64,000 nucleotides of DNA from a virus, in IMG/VR virus record IMGVR_UViG_3300031707_002920, positions 1-64,000 of that record, one strand, 5' to 3'. The translations under genes and the position numbers were made by a program. The notes under the pieces were generated by a model. That model saw only the letters and a list, made by a program, of their open reading frames with translations. It was not told the origin of the DNA and ran no database searches. Positions 9,868 through 27,094 of this stretch are shown here, in pieces; positions within the stretch are counted from its first letter, which is position 1, and each line of letters starts with the position of its first letter.

Positions 9868-9993
9868 ATGCAAACCTTACAACTTCACACCACGCTATCA
9901 ATAGAACGTGTAAAGCACGTGGTAATGGGGTTGTCCTATTTATCATACCTTGGAAAAGAAGAAGGTTATGATATATGGACAGGCGGGGTTTGA
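9868..9993 (+). CDS. Leader peptide 1 (41 aa) of the tRNA operon 1 attenuator
   Basis: GGAG RBS; MQTLQLHTTLSIERVKHVVMGLSYLSYLGKEEGYDIWTGGV*; stop overlaps the antiterminator strand. Confidence 0.8.
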   Translation: MQTLQLHTTLSIERVKHVVMGLSYLSYLGKEEGYDIWTGGV

Positions 9994-10063
9994 GTGTATT
10001 AAAAAACAAAAATTAGCATACACAAAAAACCCCGCCGATCTAACCAATCGACGGGGTTTTTTT
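9982..10063 (+). terminator. Attenuator 1: antiterminator plus intrinsic terminator
   Basis: GGCGGGGTTT (9982-9991) complements AAACCCCGCC (10027-10036), the 5' arm of terminator AAAAAACCCCGCCGAT-loop-ATCGACGGGGTTTTTTT. Confidence 0.85.
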
Positions 10064-10081
10064 ATTTTAGGGAGGCTCGCT

Positions 10082-10243
10082 ATGGAAAAACTTGAAGTCT
10101 CAAAGTGCTTCCTTCCTAAAGATGTATTTGATGAATTCATGAACATGGCAAAAGAAGACAAACAAAAATGGGGCCGGAAACCAAAACCAATCACAAAATT
10201 GGTATGGCCAAATGACAAGGAAATTATGGTGGATGTAGCTTAA
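10082..10243 (+). CDS. Small hypothetical protein, first ORF after attenuator 1
   Basis: GGGAGG RBS, MEKLEVSKC...; 3' end overlaps tRNA-His. Confidence 0.5.
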   Translation: MEKLEVSKCFLPKDVFDEFMNMAKEDKQKWGRKPKPITKLVWPNDKEIMVDVA

Positions 10244-10304
10244 CTGGCTAAAGCGCTGGATCGTGACTCCAGAGACTGTGTGGGTTCGAGTCCCATCATT
10301 CACC
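10228..10304 (+). tRNA. tRNA-His(GTG)
   Basis: G-1, acceptor GTGGATG/CATTCAC, anticodon arm CTGGA-TCGTGAC-TCCAG. Confidence 0.9.
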
Positions 10305-10365
10305 CTTAGATAGTTGTATGATTCAATTGACGATGATGATTAATGATCTTTGAAATTAAGTAAAT

Positions 10366-10439
10366 GCCTGCATAACTCAGATGGTCAGAGTACGATACTT
10401 TTAATATCGGAGTCGTCGGTTCAAATCCGACTGCAGGTA
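10366..10439 (+). tRNA. tRNA-Lys(TTT)
   Basis: CGATA-CTTTTAA-TATCG; T-arm GTCGG-TTCAAAT-CCGAC. Confidence 0.92.
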
Positions 10440-10512
10440 CTTACATTCTGATTGCACTTGCAAATGACTTATCTTTTTGTTTGATAGTTCATATCTATCT
10501 AAGGAGGTAGAT

Positions 10513-12261
10513 ATGAATGAATTACAAGAAGTTCAAGAAATTCGCAAGTTGTACAATGAAGGCGCATTTTTAGCGACTTTGCAAGAACGATTTGGTAAAC
10601 TTGTAGTTAAGCATGCATTGGCAGGTCATCGTCAAAGTAAAGGTGAACGTTGGCGATCACTTCGCAAGATGCATCCTGAAACTTTTAAGATGTCAGATGA
10701 AGCTAAACAACGAATTTCAATAGCAAGAAAGAAGTATTTAGACTTACACCCTGAAAAAGTACCATATAGATTAAATCATTCATCAAAGATAAGTTGGCCT
10801 GAAAAAATATTTGAAAGTGCACTTAAACGACATGATATTACAGGTTGGGTAAGAAATTACATGAATGGTCGATATGAATATGATTTTGCTTTTCCAATGT
10901 TGAAAATTGATGTTGAAATTGATGGCAATACACATTCACTAAGTAATGTAAAGAAGATTGATTGTGAGCGTGACAATTGGTCAAAGTCTCAAGGATGGAT
11001 TATATTACGATTTACAGCGAAACATGTACTAAGAGATGTAAATCAATGTATTGAATTGTTGCAAAAACAGATTAGTAATATGACATTAGATGTTAACGAT
11101 GAAATTAATGCGTCATTTTTAATGTTAAGAACAGCTAAAGATCGATATCGACACGCATTGAAAGAACGACGGCAACAACGCAGTGTTGAACGCGCTAAAA
11201 AAATTGAAGAGTTACAGCAAAATAGTATTCAGTTTAATGAAAATAAAAAAATTGCAGGTAATGAATTGTCATTAGAAACCATTTTAGATCGAGTAAATAT
11301 AGCTAAAAATAATGATCAAGAAAAACGAGGATACGTATCTGAGTTATCTGAATTGTGGAAAGTGTCTAGTACACAAGTTCGAAGATTTTTAAAGCAATAC
11401 TGTCCGGAATGCTTAAGATTACGTACTCGTGTTTTTTGTGAACAAGCTAAGTTTATTAAAACTGATGAGGTTGTTAAACAGATCATAAGTGACTATAAAA
11501 ATGGCGATTCTTTAAGTCAAATTTGTAAAAAATATATTGTATTAAAAAAAATTGTTAAGCAGTTATTACTAGATAATCATGTGGAAATAAGAGATAAAAG
11601 ATATTATGCTAAAAGAACACTAGCTGATCGACATCAAAAATATCTAATGTCATATAGTGACAAACTTACTGATATTGTCAAAGATCATGATAATGGTTGT
11701 ACAATTAGAGAACTTAGAAGAAAATACAATATCAGTAGAACGATAATTAAAAAATTGTTGAACTTGTCAGACAGTGATTATAAAAACCAATTACAACAAG
11801 AAAAATTAGATAAACTAGAAGCTAAGATCATACAAAAACAAAAGCTGCAAAATCAAATTAAGCAGCAGCAGCAGCGATTGTTAAAACAGAAAAGAAAACT
11901 AAAACGAAGATTAAGTCCTGAAAATCAACAAAAAATGCAAGATCGAATAAATTGCATACTCAAATCTGAGATAGATTATTCATCTTTTGGATGGGTAAAT
12001 AAAGTTTCAGTTCTTATTGGACTATCACCACAAAAGGTTAATGGATGGATGAAAAAATACATGTCAGATTTTTATGACAGTAATTGTTTCAAAAAAAGAG
12101 ATAGAAAAAATATATTGTTATCTAATGACGTCATTGAACAAATAGTTAGTGATTACAAAAATAGCAAATCATTACGTCAAATTTGCAAAAAATATGACGT
12201 GTCAAAGAATGTTGTTAAACTATTGTTGTTAAGTCGTCACATTGAAATAAGAAGTCGATGA
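10513..12261 (+). CDS. DUF559/Vsr-like putative homing endonuclease with repeated HTH-like modules
   Basis: YEYDFAF..KIDVEIDGNTH..D.ERD....QGW.ILRF; repeated IxxDYKNxxSLxQICKKY motif; AAGGAGG RBS. Confidence 0.8.
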   Translation: MNELQEVQEIRKLYNEGAFLATLQERFGKLVVKHALAGHRQSKGERWRSLRKMHPETFKMSDEAKQRISIARKKYLDLHPEKVPYRLNHSSKISWPEKIFESALKRHDITGWVRNYMNGRYEYDFAFPMLKIDVEIDGNTHSLSNVKKIDCERDNWSKSQGWIILRFTAKHVLRDVNQCIELLQKQISNMTLDVNDEINASFLMLRTAKDRYRHALKERRQQRSVERAKKIEELQQNSIQFNENKKIAGNELSLETILDRVNIAKNNDQEKRGYVSELSELWKVSSTQVRRFLKQYCPECLRLRTRVFCEQAKFIKTDEVVKQIISDYKNGDSLSQICKKYIVLKKIVKQLLLDNHVEIRDKRYYAKRTLADRHQKYLMSYSDKLTDIVKDHDNGCTIRELRRKYNISRTIIKKLLNLSDSDYKNQLQQEKLDKLEAKIIQKQKLQNQIKQQQQRLLKQKRKLKRRLSPENQQKMQDRINCILKSEIDYSSFGWVNKVSVLIGLSPQKVNGWMKKYMSDFYDSNCFKKRDRKNILLSNDVIEQIVSDYKNSKSLRQICKKYDVSKNVVKLLLLSRHIEIRSR

Positions 12262-12367
12262 GTTAAAAAAGAAGCTAGCTGATGCGCGCAAAAAACGTCA
12301 GACAATTAGAGCACGGTTGGAGCGTTCTTTGACATTGATGATGAAGCACATTTGAGAACGTAATTAC

Positions 12368-12451
12368 GCGAGGATGGCGGAATTGGCAGACGCACTGGGC
12401 CTAGAACCCAGCGGAAGAAATTCCTTGCGAGTTCAAGTCTCGCTTCTCGCA
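12368..12451 (+). tRNA. tRNA-Leu(TAG)
   Basis: CTGGG-CCTAGAA-CCCAG, long variable arm. Confidence 0.92.
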
Positions 12452-12641
12452 GTTTATAGCAAGCAGTCATGGCATGATCTGAGACTACCATCTCTGAAAT
12501 CATAGGAGAATGGCAAGACTTGATTGTCAAACTGTTTGCAAAAAGGTCAAACTTAGAACTGGCAACGGTACCAGTTCCCAAGGCACTCGACAGTGTGCCG
12601 GCAGGACTGGTCGTAGGAATGATCAACTGTCAGAATTTCTT

Positions 12642-12724
12642 GCGGATGTGGCGGAACGGCAGACGCACTACTTTGAGGTGGTAGCGAGAGCAATCTCGTG
12701 TAGGTTCAAGTCCTATCATCCGCA
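12642..12724 (+). tRNA. tRNA-Leu(GAG)
   Basis: CTACT-TTGAGGT-GGTAG, long variable arm. Confidence 0.92.
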
Positions 12725-12755
12725 TTAATTGTAAATGATTGTAGAATAGCAATAC

Positions 12756-12829
12756 GGAGTATTAGTCTAGTGGTAAAACCACGGTTTGTCGAACCGTTGT
12801 CAGCAGTTCAATTCTGCTATACTCCGCCA
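12756..12829 (+). tRNA. tRNA-Asp(GTC)
   Basis: ACGGT-TTGTCGA-ACCGT; ends G-CCA. Confidence 0.88.
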
Positions 12830-12836
12830 GATTTTT

Positions 12837-12909
12837 GGGAGCGTCTGCTAATCTGGTAAGCTTCTAGTCTCCAAAACTAGCAATACACGTTCAAATCGTG
12901 TCGCTCCTG
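12837..12909 (+). tRNA. tRNA-Trp(CCA)
   Basis: CTAGT-CTCCAAA-ACTAG. Confidence 0.85.
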
Positions 12910-13016
12910 TAATTTTGAAAACTAAATGAAAGTGTTTGCTTAGTGGCACTACAGATCAATTTTTAACATCTAACAAAGGAGGTTCTCATGATGTAAAACT
13001 TAACAAGGAGTGCATC

Positions 13017-13271
13017 ATGAGCAGATCGTATCGTGAACCGTATTTCACGAGCACAGGTTCAAAGTATCGGACATTTGCGAAACGCTATGCGAACAGGATC
13101 GTGCGAAAGACAGACGATGTCCCTGACGGTAAGGCGTACCGTAAATTGTATTGTTCGTGGAACATTAGCGATTTCAACGTCCGGTGGAATCCAAAGCCAA
13201 GAATCTGGTGGATCAATGGCAAGCAGCAAGTCATTGAACCGACACCGGAGTGGAAAGCAAGAATGAAATGA
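13017..13271 (+). CDS. Small basic hypothetical phage protein
   Basis: AAGGAG RBS; MSRSYREPY...KRYANRIVRK...YRKLYCSWNISD. Confidence 0.65.
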   Translation: MSRSYREPYFTSTGSKYRTFAKRYANRIVRKTDDVPDGKAYRKLYCSWNISDFNVRWNPKPRIWWINGKQQVIEPTPEWKARMK

Positions 13272-13332
13272 GTTTAAAGGAGGTTATAATCAATCGTATA
13301 ATTGCATAAGATAAGTTTCTATAGAAATGAAT

Positions 13333-13633
13333 GCTCGGATGGTGGAATTGGTAGACACAAGGGACTCTGTAAAAGGGTCGTATATCTTGGAAACAAGTAT
13401 ATTGTAAACTGTCAAATTCGGTGGACGGTGTAAAATCTCAACGCCGAGCCAAGCTTTAGGTAACTAAAGAAGGTGTAGAGACTAAACGGCAGTCACCTAA
13501 AAGTTAACAGTTGACTCATGGTGAAGACATAGTCCAGACTACAAACAATGCTTGTTGACGATGAAAATCGTAGTAGTAAGTAAAATCCCTCGGGAGCGAT
13601 CCTATACCGGTTCAAGTCCGGTTCCGAGCACCA
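13333..13633 (+). tRNA. tRNA-Leu(TAA) interrupted by a group I intron
   Basis: Exons 13333-13366 and 13581-13633 join to AGGGA-CTTAAAA-TCCCT; ends ACCA. Confidence 0.92.
13367..13580 (+). ncRNA. Group I self-splicing intron (214 nt, no ORF)
   Basis: P1 GACT|CT...AGGGTC with U-G at the 5' splice site; core AAATTCGGTGGA, GCCGAGCCAAG, GTAGAGACTA, AAGACATAGTCC; terminal G. Confidence 0.9.
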
Positions 13634-13661
13634 TTATGAAAAGAAAATCTTTAATACTATT

Positions 13662-13735
13662 GCCGGATTGGTGTAATTGGTAAACACGCTTATTTCAAAA
13701 GTAAGTCTTTGAGAGTTCAAAACTCTCATCCGGTA
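13662..13735 (+). tRNA. tRNA-Leu(CAA), short variable loop
   Basis: CTTAT-TTCAAAA-GTAAG. Confidence 0.82.
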
Positions 13736-13744
13736 TATGAAAAT

Positions 13745-13826
13745 TGCGGCGTACAGTAGCGGTCTAACTGGGAAGCCTCATAAGCTTCTGGCGCAAGCCT
13801 CATGAGTTCAAATCTCATCGCCGCTA
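13745..13826 (+). tRNA. tRNA-Met(CAT), initiator-like 1:72 mismatch, extra variable arm
   Basis: GAAGC-CTCATAA-GCTTC; TGCGGCG/CGCCGCT. Confidence 0.82.
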
Positions 13827-13832
13827 ATTTAT

Positions 13833-13904
13833 GTGAGTGTAGCCTAGCGGTCAGGCACCTTCCTTCCAAGTAGGTATACGCGGGTTCGATCCCCGTCACT
13901 CACT
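13833..13904 (+). tRNA. tRNA-Gly(TCC)
   Basis: Anticodon loop CTTCCAA; GTGAGTG/CACTCAC. Confidence 0.88.
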
Positions 13905-13907
13905 TAT

Positions 13908-13984
13908 AGTGGCATCATCTAACGGCTTTAGGATGCGCGGTTTTCAACCACGCAATCGGGTTTCGACTACCCGTGCCACTACCA
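13908..13984 (+). tRNA. tRNA-Glu(TTC)
   Basis: Loop TTTTCAA; AGTGGCA/TGCCACT-ACCA. Confidence 0.85.
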
Positions 13985-13993
13985 AATAGAATT

Positions 13994-14077
13994 GGGTCGG
14001 TCGCATAGCGGCAAGTGCACCTGATTGTAGCTCAGGCGTCTTACGACTATTCGTTGGTTCGAGTCCAGCCCGGCCCA
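13994..14077 (+). tRNA. tRNA-Tyr(GTA)
   Basis: CCTGA-TTGTAGC-TCAGG, variable arm. Confidence 0.9.
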
Positions 14078-14179
14078 TTTACAATGTGACTCTCTTAGAG
14101 GGTCTTACACATACCCTAAAAAATTGAGAGAGTTATATTTTCACTTCACAAAATTTGAAGTTTATTTGATAAGTGCTAT

Positions 14180-14249
14180 GGTGAGTTCGGATAATGGTAG
14201 ATCGAGCGCCCGGAAGGGTATGGGAGTTCAAGTTTCTCACTCACCGCCA
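14180..14249 (+). pseudogene. tRNA-Ser-like element lacking an anticodon arm
   Basis: Acceptor GGTGAGT/ACTCACC-G-CCA, D- and T-arms present, only a GCCC-GGAA-GGGT hairpin between them. Confidence 0.65.
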
Positions 14250-14256
14250 AAATTAT

Positions 14257-14331
14257 GCGGCAGTCGCTAAGCGGTTTAGCACATCATTGCCTATGATGTC
14301 TACGCCAGTTCGATCCTGGTCTGCCGCACCA
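14257..14331 (+). tRNA. tRNA-Gly(GCC)
   Basis: CATCA-TTGCCTA-TGATG; ends ACCA. Confidence 0.9.
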
Positions 14332-14512
14332 TTTTTTCAAAGGAGGTATATGAATTATTTACTAACTATTAGAGTGCCTTTTACTGATATTGATGATGTC
14401 ATTGCCAGACAAAAAGCATTAGAAATTTTAGAAAAAGTAAATATTTCTAATGAAAAAGTGGTCAAATTACAAAGACTGCAAGAAAATGCAGAACCTGTCA
14501 AAGTTAATTTGT

Positions 14513-14588
14513 AGGCACTTATTTCAGCGGTAAGAATAGCTGGCTTACGTCCAGCAGGTCGACAGTTCGAGTCTGTCAGTGCCTACCA
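14513..14588 (+). tRNA. tRNA-Val(TAC)
   Basis: GCTGG-CTTACGT-CCAGC; ends ACCA. Confidence 0.92.
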
Positions 14589-14661
14589 TTTTTCAAAGTA
14601 AAAAGCAATAAGATAAATCTATTGATAAAACATGTATAGTATATGTCTATAACAAACTTTC

Positions 14662-14743
14662 AGGAGAGTATCGGTACACTCTTATAAGGTGTATACCCGT
14701 AATTGGTTCATTGAAAATGAGGGTTCAAGTCCCTCCTCTCCTA
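14662..14743 (+). tRNA. Atypical tRNA-Ile(TAT): no D-arm, long variable region
   Basis: AGGAGAG/CTCTCCT, ACACT-CTTATAA-GGTGT, GAGGG-TTCAAGT-CCCTC. Confidence 0.65.
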
Positions 14744-14788
14744 TAATTAAATTAAGATCATGGCAATAATAATTGATTATCACTTTAT

Positions 14789-15143
14789 GATCCTGTGAGC
14801 GAGAAAACCCACGGTTGAAACCGTGGGATGAAAGCGAGCCGTAATATATATTCTAAATGACAGGCTCAGTTCTGAACTCTTCAAGGCTGAAAGTGCCGGT
14901 TGAGTTCCATAAAAAAATGAACTGAATCACCGTCAAAAGCTCCTTGCTTCAGGGCCAGATGTAAAAAGCACCACGGTATCATCCTGGTTTTCTGGAAAAG
15001 CACTCTGATTCGGAGATTCATAAAATTTCGTTTCATACCCAGACTCGGGCTGGAGTCTGTTGAGCGACCAGTGCCCCGCCGCAAGGCGAAAGCACCGGTG
15101 AGGGCTCATAGAAGCCCACGACTTTAGTCGTGGGAGCAGTCAC
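14789..15143 (+). mobile_element. ORF-less IS605-family derivative (PATE/MITE-like), copy A
   Basis: Inserted after TTAT; left hairpin CCCACGGTT-GA-AACCGTGGG; right part closely matches 66-168, ends TCAC. Confidence 0.88.
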
Positions 15144-15259
15144 TATATTTACAATACCATTCAGTCTTCGATTTGTCTTTGATAATTGAATTTAGAATAT
15201 GTGAAAGAGTTAGATGATGATGCTATTCTTGAAAGATTAAATATTGATGATGAACTAAA

Positions 15260-15345
15260 GGAAGAGTCGCTCAATGGTAGAGCATCTGATTTGAGATCAG
15301 ACGCCTCAAAAGGGTGTGCGGGTTCAAGTCCTGCCTCTTCCGCCA
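15260..15345 (+). tRNA. tRNA-Ser(TGA)
   Basis: TCTGA-TTTGAGA-TCAGA, long variable arm, G-CCA. Confidence 0.92.
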
Positions 15346-15616
15346 ATCTTGGGCCTGTGGCTTAGTTGGTTAATGAATGGTAATGTTTAAACAAAGGACT
15401 AGATATGAGTTTTGGATTGAAGAAGTCTTTTGGCAGGTTCGTTAAAAAACTACCGGATTTTATTGTAATAAAATATGATGACTATTTTAACGTTATTTAT
15501 AAAGATGGGCGTCAAAGCAATGAATATGAAACAGACAGATATATTTTTGGCAAAAGTGATGAAGGATTTTATATGATAAATAAGAAAGCAATAGTTTATG
15601 GAATAAGAGTATAAGT

Positions 15617-15665
15617 GGAGAGTTAGCATAACTGGTAATGCAGTCGATTTGAGGTCGACCGCTCA
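15617..15665 (+). pseudogene. 5' half of a second tRNA-Ser(TGA), truncated
   Basis: GGAGAGTTAGCATAACTGGTAATGCA-GTCGA-TTTGAGG-TCGAC, no T-arm. Confidence 0.55.
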
Positions 15666-15910
15666 TGTTTGATAAGACATTTGAACTTTTTGATCGAACC
15701 ATGCAAATGCTTGACAGAGAAATGAAATGTCTGTTTATGCGCCCTACGAAGTCGAATACGAGGGTGAGGGTTAAGATCAAGGCTGGATCTAAAGTTTATG
15801 TGAATGGTGTGATGGTTGAATTAGTTAATGATGCTATTGTTTTAACATCTGAACTTGACAGATTGATGAATACGAAAAAATAAATGAATTTAAAAAAGGT
15901 GGATTGAAAA

Positions 15911-16252
15911 ATGTTAGATGAGTTTTTGAAAACTGATAATACAGTAAAAGTCGCATTATATAAAATTGGTCGAGTGCTAGGATTTTTTTCGGAAAATTCT
16001 TTTAAGCAATACGAATATCTGTTAAATGACGAGTCAGATAACGATGTTCGAAAGTTGTTATCGTCTATTTTAGCCAGTTTGACTCACTGTGGTGCAATTG
16101 TATCGACTGACGAAAATCGAGTGAAGTGGAATGAAAATTTTAAAATCGATTCATATTTAGAGATGATGCAGCAGAAAAAAGCTTCACGAGCTAGACAAGC
16201 ACAAGACAGAGCAGCTATTAAGAATATATTGCGAAAATTTGCAACTGAATGA
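15911..16252 (+). CDS. Hypothetical protein
   Basis: ORF with AGGTGG RBS. Confidence 0.6.
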   Translation: MLDEFLKTDNTVKVALYKIGRVLGFFSENSFKQYEYLLNDESDNDVRKLLSSILASLTHCGAIVSTDENRVKWNENFKIDSYLEMMQQKKASRARQAQDRAAIKNILRKFATE

Positions 16253-16572
16253 CGAGTAATAAACAATCCTGACGGATTAGTGCTCGAAATTAAATGCGTC
16301 GATTTAGATTCATTGTTTATTGTGACGATTGTAAAGAAAAATAATAAATGGGAGCACGTATTTAAGTGTGGACATGAAATCGTGTGGAGATGCAATAGTA
16401 GAATAGGTGATCAGACAGTTTTTGAGGCTGATTCACAGCTAATTAAGAACGACAGTACACAAAATTTGTGTTATTTATACGATGATGGCACAATTAGTAT
16501 AGATCGAGATTCTTAAGTGGAACAGAAATAGCATAAGAATGATGTCTCTTACTCAAAACGCTAACAGAAATT

Positions 16573-16656
16573 GCGGGAATGGTGGAATTGGTAAACACGT
16601 CGGTTTTAGAAGTCGATGGGAGAAATCCTTTGCAGGTTCAAGTCCTGTTTCCCGCA
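16573..16656 (+). tRNA. tRNA-Leu(TAG), second copy
   Basis: Loop TTTAGAA, long variable arm. Confidence 0.9.
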
Positions 16657-16669
16657 CTAGAGATTAAAT

Positions 16670-17194
16670 ATGCTATGTCCAATATGTAATTCTGATACTT
16701 TGGTCATTAATTCGAGGGTAGTAAATGCTTGTTGTAATGTCAGGCGTCGAAGAAAATGTATAAAGTGCGATTATCGATTCAATACCATAGAACGAGTAAG
16801 AATAGATATGAATGAAAAGTTAAAACAAGTTATCGTGATGCGATCAGACCTTAATATGAGAAAAGGCAAAATGATTGTACAGGGCGCGCATGCATCAATG
16901 AAAATATTTTTTGATAGAGTCGAATCAATTAATAAGAAGATGTGTTTGAATATTACGCAGGCAATGATGGAGTGGATGACTGGTATTTTTACTAAAATTT
17001 GTGTGAAGGTCGACTCGGAACGAGAGTTACTTGAGATTAGAGAGAAAGCTATTTCTTTAGGATTACCAGTAGCTTTGATTGAAGACAACGGGTTGACTGA
17101 ATTTAAAGGAGTAGTAACAAAAACTTGTCTTGCAATAGGGCCTGATGATTCGGAAAAAATTGATCAAGTTACAGGTCATTTACAATTATTGTAA
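16670..17194 (+). CDS. pth2: NrdR-type Zn ribbon in frame with peptidyl-tRNA hydrolase 2
   Basis: MLCPIC..VINSR...VRRRRKCIKC.YRFNTIE; KQVIVMRSDLNMRKGK...QGAHA, DNGLTEF, AIGP, VTGHLQLL. Confidence 0.9.
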   Translation: MLCPICNSDTLVINSRVVNACCNVRRRRKCIKCDYRFNTIERVRIDMNEKLKQVIVMRSDLNMRKGKMIVQGAHASMKIFFDRVESINKKMCLNITQAMMEWMTGIFTKICVKVDSERELLEIREKAISLGLPVALIEDNGLTEFKGVVTKTCLAIGPDDSEKIDQVTGHLQLL

Positions 17195-17218
17195 AGCTTT
17201 AAAAGAAATGGCAATCGT

Positions 17219-18031: not shown

Positions 18032-18056
18032 GGATAGTAGTGAATGGAAATTAACA

Positions 18057-18989: not shown

Positions 18990-19014
18990 TTGATTGAGTT
19001 AATGGAAAAAAGTA

Positions 19015-19428
19015 ATGAATTATGATGACGAGTACGAGAGAGAAGTTGAAGAAATGGCGATTTTATTAAGAGAGAGATTTTGGGCAAGAATTCGTTCTGG
19101 TTTGTACAAACAAATTTGCAAAGGTAAAGGCGGTTTTTATCAATGGTCATATATAACGGGTATAAAATCAAAAGATTCTAAAGGTAATAAAATTCGTTTA
19201 TCAAAAGACAATATTGGTATTTTAGAGAAGACCGTCGACTATCTTAACTCTACTGAAGGTAGAGACGAATTAATGCAAATTGGACTATTAAATTCACCTG
19301 AAAATATAGACGAATTAATAGAAAATATACAAAGATCAAAAACAAAAGATGAAGTAAAAAAAGAAGAATTTCGAGCATTTTTAAAATATAAAGATAAAAT
19401 ATTGTCTTATTTAACAAAATTTTTATGA
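19015..19428 (+). CDS. Hypothetical protein
   Basis: ORF track. Confidence 0.55.
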   Translation: MNYDDEYEREVEEMAILLRERFWARIRSGLYKQICKGKGGFYQWSYITGIKSKDSKGNKIRLSKDNIGILEKTVDYLNSTEGRDELMQIGLLNSPENIDELIENIQRSKTKDEVKKEEFRAFLKYKDKILSYLTKFL

Positions 19429-19990
19429 AAAAAAATGAACTTATTCGCGTAGTAATTTGTTGGAAGTCGCATGCTTTATATGATATAGCGAGACAGACTA
19501 CATTCATTAGTAAAGAACATTTTTTGAAAAATAAAATCGTGCCCATCAAGCTTCGTAAAGATCAAGAAGTCGAGAGTATATCTTTAGAATTAATAAATTT
19601 GAAATTAAAGGCTAAACGTGAAAAAAGTTGATCGTGTTATTTCTGAAGGTTTAAAATCAGGTTATACGTTACGCCTCTTATTTGTTAGATTTCTTAAGGG
19701 TATTGGGAAATGGATTTTATTTCCGATAGGAGCGATAATTTTGTTTCTTATTGCAATGGTCATTGCAATTTTACTAAAACGAAAAGATTAAAAATGGAAG
19801 AACGAACAGTTGTTCAAATAACAGTCGATAATAATGACAGCATTAGGACTAGCATCGATTTAACGGATCTCGAAGAAAATGCCGTTCGATATATTCATTC
19901 AATTCTTGACGAGATGCGTTGTCAAGCTTTAGCTGCGCTTGCCAATTTTAAAGAACAGCGAGAAGATCACTTATTACCACCGGATGAATT

Positions 19991-20533
19991 ATGATAATTA
20001 GACCACCGATATATGAAGATATTTATGACGATGATTTTGTCATTTTTCTGGCCGGACCAATAATAGGAACGTATGATTGGCAACAGCAAGCTATTGCGAA
20101 TTTGCAATCATTGGCGGTCGTTCATAGAATAAATAATTTGCATATAGCATCACCTAGAAGGCTTGACAAGAGATCTGACAGCGATTTTTCTAAGAGCATG
20201 TTCGATGAGCAAGTAGATTGGGAAACTTTTTATTTGAATAGAGCTGCTGCTAAGCGAGGCGTAATATTATTTTGGCTAGCGAAAGAAATTGAGCATGACT
20301 GTCATCGCGTATTTGCACAAACTACAAGATTTGAATTAGGCGAATGGAAGACTAAACACGAGCATAATCCAAAAATACATATTACAATTGGTGTTGAACC
20401 TGGATTTACAGGTTATCTTTATATGAATCGTCGTATCCAGCAAGACTGTAAAGACATTGAAATTATGTATTCATTGGAAGATGAATGTGAATTTATAATG
20501 TTATTGATCGACCAATATCACAGGGCTAAATAG
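19991..20533 (+). CDS. Nucleoside 2-deoxyribosyltransferase-like protein
   Basis: IFLAGPI...DWQ...SPRR...QVDWE...ILFWL...TRFELG. Confidence 0.8.
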   Translation: MIIRPPIYEDIYDDDFVIFLAGPIIGTYDWQQQAIANLQSLAVVHRINNLHIASPRRLDKRSDSDFSKSMFDEQVDWETFYLNRAAAKRGVILFWLAKEIEHDCHRVFAQTTRFELGEWKTKHEHNPKIHITIGVEPGFTGYLYMNRRIQQDCKDIEIMYSLEDECEFIMLLIDQYHRAK

Positions 20534-20728
20534 TTGATCAACTCGAATATTCGGCATTATAGTGGAGAAAAACTAAATTAGCTTATGAGTTTCTCTGGAA
20601 AGTATTTGTGATAAAGGCCTTGCCGACGAGTTAGTATCAACTGGGATTTCGTTGATTGAGCTTGGTTCTGTTATGGAAGTAATCAAAAAACGCCTAAATC
20701 GGAGTACCGACTTCACATAATTGTAGAC

Positions 20729-21025
20729 GTTGTAAGAAATGCGGTTGGCTCTGAAAATTATAGGCCGCCGCTAAACCAAAACAAGAAGTAGCCGTCATGT
20801 TGCGTGAACAATGTAAATTATGCTCCTATTTTCGTAAAGCAAATCCAACCTCGCATTTTCCTTACGAGCAGGCTGATTGGTGTTATAATTCTAATTGGAA
20901 CCCCACAGGGTATTATTCTAAAAATGATGGGGCTACAGTAAAATGTACATCATTTATTCCTAATACTTTGGTACAAAAAGTTGCGGCGGCTGGAAAGTAA
21001 GGAAGCCAACCGCACATCTTACAAC
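20729..21025 (+). mobile_element. Orphan integron-type cassette containing ORF 20797-21000
   Basis: 5' GTTGTAAGAAATGCGGTTGGCTCTGAAAATTATA and 3' GGAAAGTAAGGAAGCCAACCGCACATCTTACAAC match the cassette at 46564-47072. Confidence 0.8.
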
Positions 21026-21186
21026 AGTGCTATGCTAAAATACTTCAAGGTTGTTCGTCTTGAACGAGAGGTTGCCGCCTTAAAAGCGGAGTTGACTATG
21101 ATTCTTCTTTTATAATTTGATAATTTTATATTATTGTGAGCTTAATCTACGATATTTAACGTGATTATTAATTTAAAAGGATTATC

Positions 21187-21282
21187 ATGCATTTATTTAT
21201 ACGCACATCTACATGGCTTTATAATACTGCCAGTGATATGCGTTCAAATTTCTGTGCAACAATTAGAATGGAAATAACATAA
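21187..21282 (+). CDS. Leader peptide 2 (31 aa) of the tRNA operon 2 attenuator
   Basis: AAAGGA RBS; MHLFIRTSTWLYNTASDMRSNFCATIRMEIT*. Confidence 0.78.
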   Translation: MHLFIRTSTWLYNTASDMRSNFCATIRMEIT

Positions 21283-21284
21283 TT

Positions 21285-21344
21285 GGCGAGGCTTAAAATA
21301 ATATTAAAAAAGCCTCGCTGATCAAAAGTCAACGAGGCTTTTTT
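21285..21344 (+). terminator. Attenuator 2: antiterminator plus intrinsic terminator
   Basis: GGCGAGGCTT (21285-21294) complements AAGCCTCGCT of terminator AAAAAAGCCTCGCTGA-loop-TCAACGAGGCTTTTTT. Confidence 0.85.
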
Positions 21345-21356
21345 AATGCCGAAATT

Positions 21357-21429
21357 GTTGACGTAGCTAAATTGGTATAGCGTTGCTCTCATGAAGCAAA
21401 GTGTAGTGGTTCGAGTCCACTCGTCAACA
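21357..21429 (+). tRNA. tRNA-Met/Ile2(CAT)
   Basis: TTGCT-CTCATGA-AGCAA. Confidence 0.88.
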
Positions 21430-21458
21430 TTAGTAATTTAAGTAGATTGGATAAATTT

Positions 21459-22052
21459 ATGATGGAGTCATTAGTATTAAATAGTTTTGCTATTCCAGTA
21501 TCTGTTATACCTATCAAGAGAGCTATCACGCTCGTCGCGACCAAAAAAGCAATTGCTCTTGCCAATTATGAAAATACTATAATACGGTCGTCGGGAATTG
21601 TCATACACGATTCGATACTCATGAGGTCTAAAAATTCTTTGATATCTATGGCTGTACCGTCTGTAATTCAGTGCGTACATTCCAACTACATGCCAAAAAA
21701 GTATGTCAATGTATTGCCGTTTAGCAGGCAGAATGTCTATATCAGAGACGGTGGATGTTGCATGTATTGCGGTAGAAAAGTTTCTATTTCTAATTTTACG
21801 TTCGATCACGTTATTCCACGGTGTGATGGTGGAAAAACTACTTGGGACAATATTGTTATCAGTTGTATGAAGTGCAATGCTCAAAAGGGTCGCAGGTCAG
21901 TTAATAATTACAAGAGAGCATTGATTCGCAAACCATTTGCTCCGAGATTAGATAAGGCAGCTCCGGCTCATTTGGTTAGTAAAATAGCTGCTGAAATTCC
22001 ACATAAGACGTGGATCGATTACATTTATTGGAACGTAATATTAGAGCCGTAG
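21459..22052 (+). CDS. HNH endonuclease
   Basis: FSRQNVYIRDGGCCMYCG...TFDHVIPR..GG.TTWDN...C..CN..KG. Confidence 0.92.
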   Translation: MMESLVLNSFAIPVSVIPIKRAITLVATKKAIALANYENTIIRSSGIVIHDSILMRSKNSLISMAVPSVIQCVHSNYMPKKYVNVLPFSRQNVYIRDGGCCMYCGRKVSISNFTFDHVIPRCDGGKTTWDNIVISCMKCNAQKGRRSVNNYKRALIRKPFAPRLDKAAPAHLVSKIAAEIPHKTWIDYIYWNVILEP

Positions 22053-22058
22053 GTCAAT

Positions 22059-22130
22059 GCTGGTATAGCTCAATCGTAGAGCAATGGTATTGTAAACCAT
22101 AGGTTGTGGGTTCAAGTCCTGCTACCAGCT
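22059..22130 (+). tRNA. tRNA-Thr(TGT)
   Basis: ATGGT-ATTGTAA-ACCAT. Confidence 0.9.
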
Positions 22131-22519
22131 TTTTAGCAATTGGGGCTTATATGAATACTACGATAGTAAATCGACAAGTCAAGCCTATTGATAGTATTAT
22201 ATTTTCGATTAAACCTGTAGCTGAAAGACGAAAGCTTGTATTTAGAAAAAAGAAGAAGATTACAGTAGTTGAAGACTATATACAGACTATTGAGAAACGA
22301 ATTGAATTAGTAAATAAAGATTTTTTGCAAAAGAAACTACTATATAAGTTTGCATTATGCGAATTTGACGGTCAATTTCTACTATATATGGTAATTAATA
22401 ATGATAAAGGTGACGTCGTCATGTGCTATACACGCGAAGTCACTCGCGATAATTTTAAAAAAATTTTAGACGAAATGTTTCTAGGCACGGGCTTTATGTT
22501 CGATAGTTAGACAATAAAT

Positions 22520-22596
22520 AGGCGTATCATCCAAACGGTTCAGGATACATGTCTGATAAGCATGAAATAGTAGTTCAATTCTACTTACGCCTACCA
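22520..22596 (+). tRNA. tRNA-Ile(GAT)
   Basis: CATGT-CTGATAA-GCATG; ends ACCA. Confidence 0.9.
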
Positions 22597-22830
22597 TTTT
22601 TTACAAAGGATCAACAATGGTTCGCATCTTGTGCGCTGTATGCTTATCGATGTCGTTTTTAAATTGCGCAGCTCATAAGTTGATCATTGATCCGGCAGAG
22701 TATAGCGTAGTAAAATTGTATATGATACCACATGCTATTATTATTAGAGTCGATACTATTAAAGTCGACAATTCAAAAATGTTGCAAATTAAATATTTTG
22801 GTAAAGAAAATAAATCAAGAGACTGATCGA

Positions 22831-22903
22831 GGGGCTATAGCTCAATTGGGAGAGCCGGTGCTTTGCAGGCACAAGGTTGGAGGTTCAAATCCTCTTAGCT
22901 CCA
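22831..22903 (+). tRNA. tRNA-Ala(TGC)
   Basis: GGGGCTA/TAGCTCC with G3-U70; loop TTTGCAG. Confidence 0.92.
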
Positions 22904-23716
22904 TAAATATAAACTACAAATTCAATTTCTGTTATCATTTATATACAACTATGTCTTATAGAAAAGCAATTAAATCAGTTTATAGGGCAAACTGTCTCTG
23001 CTAATGAAGTTGATGACATTAAAAATGTCGTTAGTAATTTGTTACGATCGGGTGTTGGTTTAAGTCGATAGCAGAAAATTCTATTCATACAAATATATAA
23101 CAACAATGCGTGTTCAGTGCCACTAGAATTTATTGAAAGCGATGCAGGTTGTTACAACTGCTTAAGGACTAACTTTTTCAGGAGTGTTTATGGCTACGAA
23201 GCACGTCTCTCGCTTACCTCTTTTAGGAAAGCCGCTGCCTGAGTTTGATTATCGAACCTCGCAATCTTCCATAATTGTTGTGGATGATCCTGGAGATAAA
23301 GATATGGTAATTGTTAAAAAAGGTGAAAAACCTGTTGGCAGATGTGCCTGCTTTAATAATGGATTCACCCGTGACGGATTACCACTTCCTTTAGAATAAA
23401 TGAATAGAGCCTAACACAAAGCAGATGTAAAGAAATTATGATAGTTAAACGTTACAACAAAACGAAAGGTGAATCATGCGAGCAAAGGTCATGCAGATTT
23501 AAATGTCGATGCAATTGAATTCGATAAAAATCCTGAAGATACAACGGAACTTTTACTTGCGAATTTATACACATTACTCTTAATGATGAATATTTTTGTA
23601 AAATATGACGATGTAAAATGTAAAGAAGAATATAAATTAGAAAATGGAACAACAATTAAATTTATTCGATAATCTTTGAGGTTTATAAAAGGCACTTTCA
23701 CTCTCAACAAACCCTT

Positions 23717-23791
23717 GCCCCAGTAGCTCAGCTTGGATAGAGCCACAGTTTTCTAAACTGTACGTCATCGGTTCGAGTCCGATCTGGGGTT
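23717..23791 (+). tRNA. tRNA-Arg(TCT)
   Basis: ACAGT-TTTCTAA-ACTGT. Confidence 0.92.
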
Positions 23792-24243
23792 TTTTATGAA
23801 AAAATACGGACGACAGAAACAACATCCAGGTAATTTACCTGACAATCATCCACCGAAAAGATTTCGAAATTGGTGGGAAATTGAATATCATAACGGTAAG
23901 TCAAAGAAGCGTGAATGCAGGCAAGCTGCCATTGATATCATCAAAGAACTAATTGAAAAATCCTCTCTTATTACGAACTTTGATAGTATTATTACTCTTT
24001 AATTATTTTTCGTATGTTTGATAAAATGAACAATTTATATGAAGAGGTAAAAAATTATGGACGAAATTAAAAGGACTCTCATAGAGAAAGCAAAAGAAGA
24101 ATATGGTCATATAAGACCAATTAGGGGTAAATTAGGACAACACATGTCTTTAAATGATTGTTTTACATTACATGATGGTAAACTATTGTTTTGGTTTAAT
24201 ACGTCAGATGATACTACTAGAATGTTAATTAAAGAGGTTGTAA

Positions 24244-24471
24244 ATGGAAGTAATTGATAAAATTAAACAAATAATAGCTGATCAATTATGTATAGAAGAA
24301 TCGTTTATATTAATGCGTTCAAAATTTGAAGACGATTTAGGATCGGATTCAGTAAGCTTAGTTGAAATAATAATTGCTGTAGAAGACGAATTTAATATTA
24401 GTATATCTGATGAAAGTCTTCAAAAGATGAAAACAGTTGAAGATTTAGTTAATCATGTTAAAAACATTTAA
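24244..24471 (+). CDS. acpP: Acyl carrier protein
   Basis: DDLGSDSVSLVEIIIAVEDEFNISISDE...TVEDLV. Confidence 0.9.
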   Translation: MEVIDKIKQIIADQLCIEESFILMRSKFEDDLGSDSVSLVEIIIAVEDEFNISISDESLQKMKTVEDLVNHVKNI

Positions 24472-24491
24472 CGTTCATCAGAGGTGTTATT

Positions 24492-24983
24492 ATGAAAATA
24501 TTGTTGTTTGTATTATTACTTTGTATAGGCAGTAACGCTAGTGCTAGCGTTAGTGCTATTAACGACACAGTCGATTCATTAAGAACGTATTCGGGCGCTA
24601 TTAAAAAAATTGAAAAATTTTATGCTAAGCAACAACTTGATTATTCTGGTAGAATTTTAACACATGTACTAATTCCTGTTTCAATGTTTCCATTTTTATG
24701 TATGCCAGATTCGATCACAAAAAATTTGCAACGCGGACAATTAGTATGGATGAATTCATTTGAATTAAATATGAGAAAACGAGTTGATAAATCAAATGAA
24801 TATTTGCAAATTGCAACTGTTAGTTATGTCGGGCTGCCTAATGGGCATCCTGATTTTAAAACATATAGATTATTCTTTTTCGTAAAAAATGTAGCGATGG
24901 GAGATTGGGAAGAAACAAGAGATCCATTAGTAGTAATACTTGATCTTACAAGTAAATTAGAAGTCACTTATGGTTGTCATTAA
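24492..24983 (+). CDS. Hypothetical secreted protein
   Basis: Signal-peptide-like MKILLFVLLLCIGSNASA. Confidence 0.6.
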   Translation: MKILLFVLLLCIGSNASASVSAINDTVDSLRTYSGAIKKIEKFYAKQQLDYSGRILTHVLIPVSMFPFLCMPDSITKNLQRGQLVWMNSFELNMRKRVDKSNEYLQIATVSYVGLPNGHPDFKTYRLFFFVKNVAMGDWEETRDPLVVILDLTSKLEVTYGCH

Positions 24984-25013
24984 TAATAATCTTATGATTT
25001 TTTAGACAAAAAT

Positions 25014-25716
25014 ATGAAACATCTAATGATAGTCCAAAAAGAATTCTTGAAATATGCGTCAGACGGTCGTTCTATTCCTGTGTCGCAACTTGGCATTCAT
25101 AGACCTGGATCATGGTGGGATGATTTATGATCCTGTGAGCGAGAAAACCCACGGTTTCAACCGTGGGATGAAAGCGAACCAGTACACATAAAAAATAAAT
25201 TACATTCTTTGTGAAAAATAATGTATATTTAAATCCAGACAGAGATTGTTCCTCAAAGCTGAAAATGCTGGTTGAACACTAAAAATCTCTATCTACTTTT
25301 CTCCTTGCTTCAGACCTAATAAATCTGATTCGGAGATCTCAAAGTTTTTAAAAGAACTCAGACTCGGGCTGGAGTCTGTTGAGCGACCCCCGCATCGCCG
25401 CAAGGCGGCAGCACGGGTGAGGGCTCATAGAAGCCCACGACTTTAGTCGTGGGAGCAGTCACCTTATAAAGAACAGATAGCATATCTTAGAAGACATCCA
25501 AAATCATTCTGGAAACGATATCTAAAAAAACCACCTAAAGAAGAAACTATTGAACTTTCTACTGAGCCTTTAATTCAACCTACAGACTATTATGGAGAAG
25601 ATTGGGACAGTCTAACACGAAAAGAACAACTACAGGAATTAGCTTATCATCAACGAAAACAACTTAAAAAACGACAAAACCTTCAACGGCAACTTATACT
25701 AAAGGGCATGATTTAA
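25014..25716 (+). pseudogene. MKH-leader family gene interrupted by IS605 derivative B
   Basis: Removing 25129-25462 restores a 122-aa ORF MKHLMIVQKEFLKYA...WWDDL|SYKEQIAYLRRHPKS. Confidence 0.88.
25129..25462 (+). mobile_element. ORF-less IS605-family derivative, copy B
   Basis: TTAT|GATCCTGTGAGCGAG left end, TCAC right end, same end hairpins as 14789-15143. Confidence 0.92.
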
Positions 25717-25890
25717 CTAAGAAATTAGGGTTAAAGTAATCTTAAGATTAACTTATAATTAATGGTTTTACTACGATATTTATAATGATTATTTATAATA
25801 GAAGTGGTGCTTAGAAGAAAATTTCAGAATTTACTTAATCTCAATTTTCTTCGAATTTCATCCTTCTTTTAAACTAAAAAAGGTTTTAAA

Positions 25891-25956
25891 ATGACGATTC
25901 GTAGGCAGCCGCAACAGCAACGTCGCCCTCAACCAGGACGGTGTATGCTCAAGTGA
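25891..25956 (+). CDS. Leader peptide 3 (21 aa, Arg/Gln/Pro-rich) of the tRNA operon 3 attenuator
   Basis: AAAGGT RBS; MTIRRQPQQQRRPQPGRCMLK*. Confidence 0.85.
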   Translation: MTIRRQPQQQRRPQPGRCMLK

Positions 25957-26016
25957 AGCTGTCGAATTAACGTTATATTTATTAAAGGCTTCACTTGAAA
26001 AAGTGGAGCCTTTTTT
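25951..26016 (+). terminator. Attenuator 3: antiterminator plus intrinsic terminator
   Basis: AAGTGAAGCT (contains the leader stop) complements GGCTTCACTT of terminator AAAGGCTTCACTT-GAAA-AAGTGGAGCCTTTTTT. Confidence 0.88.
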
Positions 26017-26032
26017 ATTGTTGAAATAAGCA

Positions 26033-26107
26033 CGGGACGTAATGCAGTGGGAGCATGCAACATTTGGGATGTTGTAGTCGTCGGTTCGAATCCGACCGTC
26101 CCGACCA
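26033..26107 (+). tRNA. tRNA-Pro(TGG)
   Basis: CAACA-TTTGGGA-TGTTG; ACCA. Confidence 0.92.
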
Positions 26108-26114
26108 ATTTTAT

Positions 26115-26189
26115 TGGAGTATAGCTCAATGATAGAGCACTGAGCTCTGGACTCAGATGTTTGAGGTTTAAATCCTCATACCCCAGCCA
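26115..26189 (+). tRNA. tRNA-Gln(CTG)
   Basis: CTGAG-CTCTGGA-CTCAG; GCCA. Confidence 0.88.
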
Positions 26190-26194
26190 AGTTT

Positions 26195-26267
26195 CGGGAT
26201 GTATTTCAAATGGTAGAATTTCTGATCCGGGATCAGAAGGTTAGCAGTTCAAGTCTGCTCATCCCGA
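26195..26267 (+). tRNA. tRNA-Pro(CGG)
   Basis: TCTGA-TCCGGGA-TCAGA (C33). Confidence 0.88.
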
Positions 26268-26291
26268 TTACATAAGTGTCTGATTGTAAAA

Positions 26292-26366
26292 CGGAGCGTG
26301 GCCCAGTCGGTTCAGGGCTCCTGAACGGGGTTCAGGAGATCGGCAGTTCGAATCTGCCCGCTCCGA
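26292..26366 (+). tRNA. tRNA-Pro(GGG)
   Basis: CCTGA-ACGGGGT-TCAGG (C33). Confidence 0.88.
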
Positions 26367-26371
26367 TTAAT

Positions 26372-26446
26372 GTTCCTATAGCTCAACTGGATTAGAGCAG
26401 TAGTTTCCGATACTACAGGTTAACCGTTCAAATCGGTTTAGGAACA
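26372..26446 (+). tRNA. tRNA-Arg(CCG)
   Basis: GTAGT-TTCCGAT-ACTAC. Confidence 0.9.
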
Positions 26447-26453
26447 ATAAATT

Positions 26454-26527
26454 AGGGGTGTAGCTCAGTTGGCTAGAGCAGCAGATTTTGATTCTGCGAG
26501 TCGTGGGTTCGAGTCCCTCCACCCCCA
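26454..26527 (+). tRNA. tRNA-Gln(TTG)
   Basis: GCAGA-TTTTGAT-TCTGC. Confidence 0.88.
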
Positions 26528-26534
26528 TTAACAT

Positions 26535-26608
26535 ATCTCTATAGCTCAATGGATTAGAGCAGCGATTTCCTACATCGCAGGTTGAGAGTTCAAATCTCTC
26601 TAGAGATA
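26535..26608 (+). tRNA. tRNA-Arg(CCT)
   Basis: GCGAT-TTCCTAC-ATCGC. Confidence 0.9.
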
Positions 26609-26623
26609 CTATTTCAATATGCT

Positions 26624-26684
26624 TGTTTCTTAATTCAACGGTAGAATGCAAGCTTTGAAACTTGACACAGAGGTTCGACACCTT
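26624..26684 (+). pseudogene. Degenerate tRNA (Gln-TTG-like) lacking the 3' acceptor strand
   Basis: ATTC-AACGGTA-GAAT D-arm, CAAG-CTTTGAAA-CTTG, GAGG-TTCGACA-CCTT. Confidence 0.5.
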
Positions 26685-26712
26685 TTGCTATTGCTATTTC
26701 TAGTAAAATGAT

Positions 26713-27036
26713 ATGAACAATGTAATTCAGAAAAACTTGTACAAAACTTGTACAAGATGTAAATTAACAAAACCTATTGAAGAGTTTTATAAACAGGTTC
26801 AAGGAATATATGGTTGCAAGAGTGAGTGTAAAGAGTGTTCAAAAAAATTAACAAGCGACGATTATCAAATACATAAAAAAGAAAGAAATGCTACAAAAAG
26901 AAAATGGTGCATAAGAAATAGGAAAAGATATAATGAAGTCCATTTAAAATGGGTACACGATAATAGAGAGCATTACAACGCTTATCATAGAGAGTATAAA
27001 CAAAGACAAGCTCGTTTATTTGTGCCTGTTTCCTAA
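26713..27036 (+). CDS. Zn-binding N-terminal module of an HNH-type homing endonuclease (catalytic domain absent)
   Basis: KTCTRCKLTKPIEEFY...CKEC. Confidence 0.65.
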   Translation: MNNVIQKNLYKTCTRCKLTKPIEEFYKQVQGIYGCKSECKECSKKLTSDDYQIHKKERNATKRKWCIRNRKRYNEVHLKWVHDNREHYNAYHREYKQRQARLFVPVS

Positions 27037-27094
27037 CAGGATAGGGGATCAGATTACGAATCTGATTGTGAGAGTTCGAATCTCTCCAGGCACA
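27022..27094 (+). tRNA. tRNA-Arg(ACG)
   Basis: TCAGA-TTACGAA-TCTGA. Confidence 0.9.

Follow-up and report, generated by a model that had tools for sequence, protein, structure and literature searches.

Putative leader-peptide attenuators ahead of the tRNA gene blocks of a probable jumbo phage

How phage arrays of transfer RNA (tRNA) genes are regulated, and why phages carry them, are questions raised by a 64,000-nt stretch of viral DNA (positions 1-64,000 of IMGVR_UViG_3300031707_002920), referred to here as the window, in which ARAGORN called 28 tRNA genes in three runs and one transfer-messenger RNA (tmRNA). The window opens a virus contig of 85.9 kb that originated from a sediment metagenome, has a G+C content of 35.7% and carries almost all of its genes on the + strand. 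The related contigs in IMG/VR measure 126-424 kb, which makes it probable that this one is a piece of a larger genome, that of a jumbo phage or megaphage. Each tRNA run is preceded by a unit with four parts, namely a promoter-like motif, a Shine-Dalgarno (SD)-like stretch with an ATG, a short open reading frame (ORF), and a GC-rich hairpin followed by a T-run. From the anatomy of these units, the alternative RNA helices they contain together with the conservation and covariation of those helices, and the match between leader codons and the anticodons that follow, including its co-variation among relatives and its position within the leader, it is likely that each tRNA block is a transcription unit under a ribosome-mediated (leader-peptide) attenuator.

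Anatomy of the leader units and their alternative helices

The sequence-only reading of this locus had described three tRNA blocks, each headed by a ribosome-binding site, a short ORF and a segment at the stop codon complementary to the 5' arm of an intrinsic terminator, and this arrangement was confirmed for units extending over 9868-10063, 21187-21344 and 25891-26016, all on the + strand. The first leader ORF (9868-9993) has 41 codons, the SD sequence GGAG before its ATG and the stop codon TGA, and homologues of it are present in the relatives G001, G003 and G004. The second (21187-21282; 31 codons, SD AAGGA, stop TAA) is in the frame that is kept with its SD and ATG in the same three relatives, and the third (25891-25956; 21 codons, SD AAAGG, stop TGA) reads RRQPQQQRRPQP at codons 4-15. 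At each stop codon a strand of 10-13 nt is complementary to the 5' arm of the unit's own terminator hairpin and would form the 5' strand of an antiterminator. In unit 1 this strand (9981-9992, region 2) overlaps the stop codon (9991-9993), in unit 2 (21283-21295) it begins immediately past the stop codon and in unit 3 (25949-25961) the stop codon lies inside it.

The intrinsic terminators follow at 10026-10063 (hairpin 10030-10056 and T-run, the 5' arm doubling as the 3' strand of the antiterminator), 21308-21344 (GC-rich hairpin and T-run, 21312-21344) and 25984-26016 (GC-rich hairpin and T-run, 25987-26016). Their hairpins have energies of -11.9 to -14.8 kcal/mol, or -18.7 to -22.9 kcal/mol with the A/T-tract extension, and are followed by six or seven T. 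The tRNAs begin 12-166 nt past the terminators; in units 2 and 3 the distances after the T-run are 12 and 17 nt, a space too small for a second promoter, and no further strong + strand terminator was found inside the tRNA blocks. Because their tRNAs start so close behind the terminators, blocks 2 and 3 would be transcribed only by read-through. Between terminator 1 and tRNA-His lies a 53-codon ORF (10083-10243) with a strong SD (AGGGAGG), which overlaps the start of the tRNA and is conserved in G003, the motif in common being QKWGRKPKPITKLVWP.

Upstream of the leaders the promoter-like motif is found at 21146-21168 for unit 2 (TCTACG-N10-TGATTAT), at 25770-25792 for unit 3 (also of the TCTACG type, with N10 and TGATTAT) and at 9785-9807 for unit 1 in the variant form TCTTCG-N10-TGATTAT, all on the + strand. 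It also precedes most leaders in the closer relatives, and we infer that it acts as a promoter. The form CTACG-N10-TGATTAT recurs at 40425-40446 and 41428-41449 in the window, as identical 22-mers in a locally duplicated region, and at 80105 of the contig, and because of this recurrence the motif appears to be a general phage promoter class that is not specific to the tRNA units. The 5' untranslated region of leader 3 (25797-25880) is kept in G004 before a type-3 leader and in G002 before a type-4 leader, where it has a tRNA-Gln inside, and may represent the remains of a tRNA or a signal for processing.

When the region was compared with 50,697 phage records by megablast and blastn no close relative was found, only scattered tRNA-sized matches; the sole sequencing run that matched positions 21100-27100 is DNA from a sediment metagenome and is the probable source of the contig. 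Relatives (G001-G019) were obtained from IMG/VR via the proteins flanking the blocks and then by alignment of the helicase, and tRNA clusters, located by an Rfam tRNA scan of the 19 records, were scanned with the same script as the window. Units were found in the closer relatives G001-G004 and G006 and in the more distant G007, G008 and G010 (helicase identity 44-45%), giving 23 units with those of the window. In all 23 an ATG stands behind a purine-rich SD-like stretch and the reading frame is conserved among relatives; such SD-like sites suggest that the host is an SD-using bacterium. As G012, G013 and G014 (helicase identity ~30%) have tRNAs but no such units, the design is limited to a clade within the phage family.

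A fourth block, with tRNAs for Phe, Ser-GCT, Cys and Thr-CGT, an amber-suppressor tRNA and in one relative Asn, is present in the closer relatives behind a leader (type 4) that is rich in F, S (AGY), C, T and N. It is not found in the window's contig, probably owing to the incompleteness of that contig. In two relatives the type-4 leader follows a tRNA and has no promoter-like motif; the distant relatives have sigma-70-like promoters. Suppressor-type tRNAs with CTA and TTA anticodons, together with a tRNA with the four-base anticodon CTTG, were noted in G002-G004 (L012, L016, L017, L018). The three type-4 leaders with a CTA tRNA in their block end in TAG and that of G001, which has no CTA tRNA, ends in TAA, an observation which at n=4 is anecdotal.

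The two helices available to each unit are mutually exclusive. The energies of antiterminator and terminator are -24.1 and -18.7 kcal/mol in unit 1, -16.0 and -22.9 kcal/mol in unit 2 and -11.8 and -18.7 kcal/mol in unit 3. RNA folded without the 3' arm of the terminator adopts the antiterminator hairpin, and the complete RNA of units 2 and 3 folds into the terminator. For unit 1 a local fold retains the antiterminator, and the fold of the full-length leader gives the terminator with the antiterminator strand bound by a protector. The antiterminator complementarity far exceeds that of dinucleotide shuffles (z of -5.3, -5.5 and -3.9 for units 1, 2 and 3); over 22 of the 23 units the mean z was -4.7, compared with -0.24 for 35 other terminators from the same loci.

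A single MAFFT alignment of seven type-3 units was discarded as the helix registers were shifted, and RNAalifold was run instead for each leader type on sequences ending before the 3' arm of the terminator. The consensus was the antiterminator helix in all four leader types. Compensatory changes on both sides of the helix were seen at three pairs in type 2, at four in type 3 (such as CAAGTGAAGC and GCTTCACTTG versus CATGTGAGAC and GTCTCACATG) and at one pair of the main helix in type 4; the type-1 helix is too conserved to show variation. In every one of the 15 units drawn the stop codon overlaps the antiterminator strand, lies within it or directly precedes it. The trp/his attenuation geometry that the sequence-only reading had recognised is supported, with mutually exclusive helices correctly placed with respect to the stop codon and compensatory changes in relatives.

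A third pairing would complete the layout. Folded alone, all four type-1 leaders pair the antiterminator strand with codons 2-4 (CAAACC), which in unit 1 makes 9871-9878 (+ strand) a candidate protector strand (region 1), a role that we infer from the fold. The type-1 leaders all begin M-Q-T, yet neither Q nor T is a block-1 amino acid, and protector pairing at codons 2-4 would explain this start. Type-3 leaders folded alone pair the strand with codons 5-11. In type 2 such pairing is faint or missing, and covariation does not back it; a protector (1:2 pairing) is a likely candidate in types 1 and 3. The resulting 1:2, 2:3 and 3:4 layout would be like that of the trp attenuator. Elsewhere in the window a terminator at 33697-33720, after a 109-codon ORF (33337-33666), is matched upstream by a perfect complement of 9 nt (33618-33628, z -3.1) in the 3' end of that ORF; the geometry of 33618-33720 is unlike that of the tRNA leaders and a primase-like gene comes next.

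Codon content of the leaders and the tRNAs behind them

Block 1 (10229-16657, + strand) consists of tRNAs for His, Lys, Leu (five, including an intron-containing Leu-TAA), Asp, Trp, CAT, Gly (two), Glu, Tyr, Val and Ser, with an Ile(TAT)-like gene and with homing-endonuclease-like ORFs scattered through it. Block 2 (21356-23791, + strand) comprises CAT, Thr-TGT, Ile-GAT, Ala-TGC and Arg-TCT and has an HNH endonuclease ORF (21447-22052) inside, and block 3 (26033-27095, + strand) comprises Pro (three), Gln (two), Arg-CCG, Arg-CCT and Arg-ACG. Codons were assigned to blocks by standard wobble rules. Block 1 tRNAs decode 31 of the 40 codons in leader 1 (P=2e-3), block 3 tRNAs 13 of the 20 in leader 3 (P=3e-9) and block 2 tRNAs 9 of the 30 in leader 2 (P=0.035), five of these last falling consecutively in a cluster, A-T-I-R-M, at codons 24-28. 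Every anticodon called by ARAGORN has a cognate codon in its own leader (14/14, 5/5 and 8/8 for blocks 1, 2 and 3).

The claim of the sequence-only reading that the leaders divide the code in the same way as the blocks stands as a statistical statement. In a 3x3 table of leaders by blocks 49 of the 71 assignable codons are on the diagonal (chi2 37.3, P=1.6e-7; permutation P ~1e-5), but the partition is not exact, as one third of the leader 2 codons are decoded by block 1 tRNAs and others by no tRNA of the window. The same is true of the split within Arg: AGA is confined to leader 2 and AGG and CGG to leader 3, as had been proposed, but CGT/CGC is found in leaders 1 and 2 too.

In the relatives, too, leader and block change together. 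Counted over the first 15 units, 122 of 126 block anticodons are represented by a cognate codon in the leader of the same unit, where genomic codon usage would predict ~70, although related units share ancestry and the independent events are fewer than such counts suggest. Permuting blocks among leaders of the same type, the shuffled control that had been suggested for such co-variation, gave P=5e-5. Individual cases are instructive. In G008, where His and Met(CAT) are split into a separate block, the leader of that block contains MVHHMIHSH. The blocks of G007 and G008 that hold only Pro and Gln have leaders of the QQPQPQP type, in which the Arg runs are replaced by 1 and 2 scattered Arg codons. 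Val tRNAs have been gained in block 2 of G001 and G004, with an Asp tRNA also in G004, and the type-2 leaders have gained the matching V and D codons, which occur only where those tRNAs joined the block; likewise, ACG codons are found in type-4 leaders only where the block has Thr-CGT. Leader 3 of the window's contig (G000) differs from that of the close relative G006 at 8 codons, and since 4 of the changes are synonymous and 4 are within or into {P, Q, R}, what selection seems to preserve is that a codon belongs to the tRNA set, and not the peptide sequence.

Measured over the 23 leaders by distance upstream of the antiterminator strand, the cognate fraction is 0.21 within the strand, 0.27 for the 1-3 codons before it, where a stalled ribosome would still cover the strand, 0.74 at 4-7 codons and 0.80 at 8-12 codons, falling to 0.51 and 0.43 farther upstream. 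Low values near the strand and a peak at 4-12 codons are as predicted by a ribosome footprint that extends ~4-5 codons downstream of the A site. Within this sensor zone leader 1 reads Y-L-G-K-E-E-G-Y-D (9/9 cognate), leader 2 N-F-C-A-T-I-R-M-E (5/9) and leader 3 Q-Q-Q-R-R-P-Q-P-G (8/9). The proposal that leader codons match the tRNAs they gate is supported both by the co-variation with block anticodons and by a cognate peak at the distance that the footprint predicts.

Proposed circuit and competing explanations

In the proposed circuit transcription would start at a phage promoter and run into the short translated ORF. With smooth decoding the ribosome would reach the stop codon and cover the antiterminator strand, the terminator would form and the polymerase would halt before the tRNAs. 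When a charged tRNA is short the ribosome would stall 4-12 codons upstream, leaving the antiterminator strand free to capture the 5' arm of the terminator, and read-through into the tRNAs would follow. Leader translation, stalling and its effect on read-through are predictions of this account. In leaders 1 and 3 without a ribosome the protector would sequester the antiterminator strand, so that untranslated transcripts would also terminate. The sensed codons being those decoded by the downstream tRNAs, the outcome would be negative feedback, block by block, on the supply of charged tRNA, whether of host or phage origin. As the leader is decoded by the very tRNAs that are transcribed, the negative feedback on a block would come both from its own products and from the tRNA pool of the host. 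tRNA genes have no protein product to sense, and it is probable, though less firmly so than attenuation itself, that giant phages in this manner take a census of the charged-tRNA pool for each block, a multi-codon leader sampling exactly the anticodons behind it and the products feeding back via the ribosome.

Several points must be set against this account. Leader 2 is weakly enriched overall (9/30, P=0.035). Most of the sensed tRNAs are represented by one to three codons, with no runs, and given such numbers the dynamic range for each tRNA may be small. If the host were Firmicute-like, with an RNA polymerase that outruns the ribosomes, attenuation that depends on coupling would be less efficient. 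The shared ancestry of the units, mentioned above, reduces the weight of the co-variation. A Trp codon persists in the type-1 leaders of two relatives for which no Trp tRNA was found on the incomplete contigs, and the type-4 leaders of G001-G003 are Asn-rich with no Asn tRNA detected. An intron-containing tRNA that follows tRNA-Phe was considered as the missing Asn tRNA and rejected, as it is Thr(TGT) in G003 by group I splice-site rules and in G001 and G002 by ARAGORN; it is Asn(GTT) only in G004, and the Asn mismatch stands.

The alternative that survives best, put forward in the sequence-only reading, is that the main role of the attenuators would be to sense the cutting of host tRNAs by anticodon nucleases (PrrC, VapC-like, PARIS), replacement tRNAs being made only then. 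Phage tRNAs can substitute for nuclease-cleaved host tRNAs, the circuit would react to the loss of any sensed tRNA and the multi-codon leaders cover every anticodon of a block. The same circuit would, however, react just as well to starvation for amino acids, to a mismatch in codon usage and to the tRNA output of the phage itself, so that ordinary demand would suffice to trigger it, and the leaders sense nearly all amino acids, which goes beyond the usual nuclease targets. No feature of the window ties the units to defence, and an RNA ligase, PNK or RtcB-type repair gene was not among the 30 ORFs scanned (10 with PHROGs, 20 with Pfam). Defence as the main role is accordingly considered unlikely, while having more in its favour than the readings that follow.

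It could also be argued that a leader reports the speed of the ribosome whatever its codons, in which case tRNA transcription would track the overall supply of ribosomes or the shut-off of the host. The antiterminator would gain from a slower ribosome anywhere in the leader, and leaders 1 and 2 do hold many codons that are not decoded by their own block. Such a gauge could nevertheless do without three or four leaders of different composition in one genome, and it does not account for codon content that is block-specific and co-varies with the content of the block, or for the concentration of cognate codons in the window defined by the footprint, and it is regarded as improbable. That there is no regulation at all, the short ORFs being small proteins or chance frames and the hairpins leaky terminators of the preceding operon, is very improbable: each terminator does also sit at the end of the preceding gene block and short open frames are not rare at 36% G+C, but SD, ATG and frame are conserved in 23 units with the stop always at the antiterminator strand, the antiterminator complementarity is far above controls and is accompanied by compensatory changes, a promoter-like motif lies between the preceding gene and each leader of the window and most leaders of closer relatives, substitutions keep the amino-acid set and not the peptide sequence, and tRNAs right behind a constitutive strong terminator would be silent.

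If ribosome-mediated attenuation of the tRNA blocks is the correct explanation, tRNA genes would thereby gain their first described case of direct feedback control, one in which the sensed ligands are the products of the controlled genes, and phages would tune the supply of tRNA per codon set instead of expressing an array constitutively. A textbook bacterial mechanism would then also be at work in viruses and on a class of genes for which it is new. The leaders would serve as a natural annotation that shows which tRNAs a phage groups functionally and can flag missing or unconventional tRNA genes, and the units, as compact modular sensors of decoding capacity, might be reused as reporters of tRNA availability.

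Genomic setting and known systems

The region around the blocks has the appearance of a translation-support island. A gene for a PTH2-type peptidyl-tRNA hydrolase (16670-17194; Pfam E=2e-33) with an N-terminal NrdR-like zinc ribbon starts 13 nt past the last block 1 tRNA, apparently in the same transcription unit, and the tmRNA is found at 30796-31207 (ARAGORN). Translation- or nucleotide-linked genes among the 30 ORFs scanned were those for PTH2, for homing-endonuclease-like ORFs and for a nucleoside deoxyribosyltransferase-like protein. The load of mobile elements is high (10477-12261, 21447-22052, 51276-52535 and 57454-63431) and includes a DUF559/helix-turn-helix (HTH) endonuclease-like ORF, an HNH endonuclease and an insertion sequence (IS)-type transposase; the first two of these are located between tRNA genes. 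Two large ORFs carrying additional domains code for a DnaE-type polymerase.

As low-threshold ARAGORN output was mostly noise, only two genes from it, both backed by Rfam, were retained. The tRNA-Leu(TAA) at 13333-13633 was called in the intron mode of ARAGORN and its anticodon loop is interrupted by a group I intron (Rfam, 13357-13557, 63 bits). Intron-containing tRNAs are also found in relatives, namely Leu-TAA in G003 and, after tRNA-Phe in the fourth block, Thr-TGT or Asn-GTT. The Ile(TAT)-like tRNA at 14662-14743 (Rfam, 36 bits) has a long variable arm and no ARAGORN call; it would decode the ATA codons of leader 1, and similar genes are present in G003 and G001. Three other apparent Ile-TAT calls at low threshold were rejected as copies of a repeated hairpin element. 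An element of ~50 nt is present in three copies (14785-14835, 25125-25175 and contig ~67090-67140), ends in a perfect hairpin, CCCACGGTT..AACCGTGGG, and looks like a - strand terminator and not a tRNA.

Apart from the protector, which is a candidate in types 1 and 3, every defining feature of a leader-peptide attenuator that can be assessed at the level of sequence is present in the units. In a search of window positions 9000-32000 at E up to 1 there was no match to the leader families of Rfam (Trp, His, Leu, Thr, Phe), to the T-box or to a riboswitch. Control of this kind is not known from phage tRNA clusters, and a full-text literature search, whose coverage excluded older subscription literature, found no description of leader-peptide attenuation of tRNA genes.

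The closest mechanistic parallels are the enterobacterial amino-acid leaders. In trpL, hisL, leuL, pheL, thrL and ilvGMEDA a translated leader with diagnostic codons is combined with protector, antiterminator and terminator pairings, and the thr and ilv leaders sense several amino acids simultaneously. The phage units resemble these in their diagnostic codons, their alternating pairings, a stop codon placed to mask the antiterminator and a terminator before the genes. They differ in that they gate tRNA genes and not biosynthetic enzymes, so that the sensed molecule is the gene product, in that a single leader covers up to ~17 tRNA species, mostly with 1-3 codons each, and in that several differently composed leaders, belonging to no Rfam leader family, occur in one phage genome. 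The pheST attenuator of E. coli provides a case of leader-peptide control of a gene of the translation apparatus, expression rising when cognate decoding is slow; it differs from the phage units in that its target is a synthetase, one amino acid is sensed through a run of Phe codons and the gene is cellular. A likeness can also be drawn to the T-box of Gram-positive bacteria, in which the state of a specific tRNA is sensed and a terminator/antiterminator switch precedes translation-related genes. The T-box binds uncharged tRNA directly, through its specifier loop and T-box sequence, and has no leader ORF, whereas the phage leaders, at 70-200 nt, are too short and have an SD, an ATG and an ORF.

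In the bmrCD and msrD attenuators a ribosome stalled in a leader ORF is reported to shift the balance from terminator to antiterminator, in Gram-positive hosts too (PMC4191407, PMC10314930). There the stall is that of a drug-bound ribosome and is not due to a shortage of cognate tRNA, and the genes controlled are for resistance. In Anabaena PCC 7120 an accessory tRNA array, the trn operon, is silent and is induced when translation is impaired (PMC8421152, PMC10272220). Its control is attributed, in the title of one of these papers, to the transcriptional repressor TrcR (PMC10272220), and the words attenuat-, leader peptide and terminator occur in neither (PMC8421152, PMC10272220). The trn operon is nonetheless the nearest published case to the phage units, one that is carried on a cyanobacterial megaplasmid and not by a phage.

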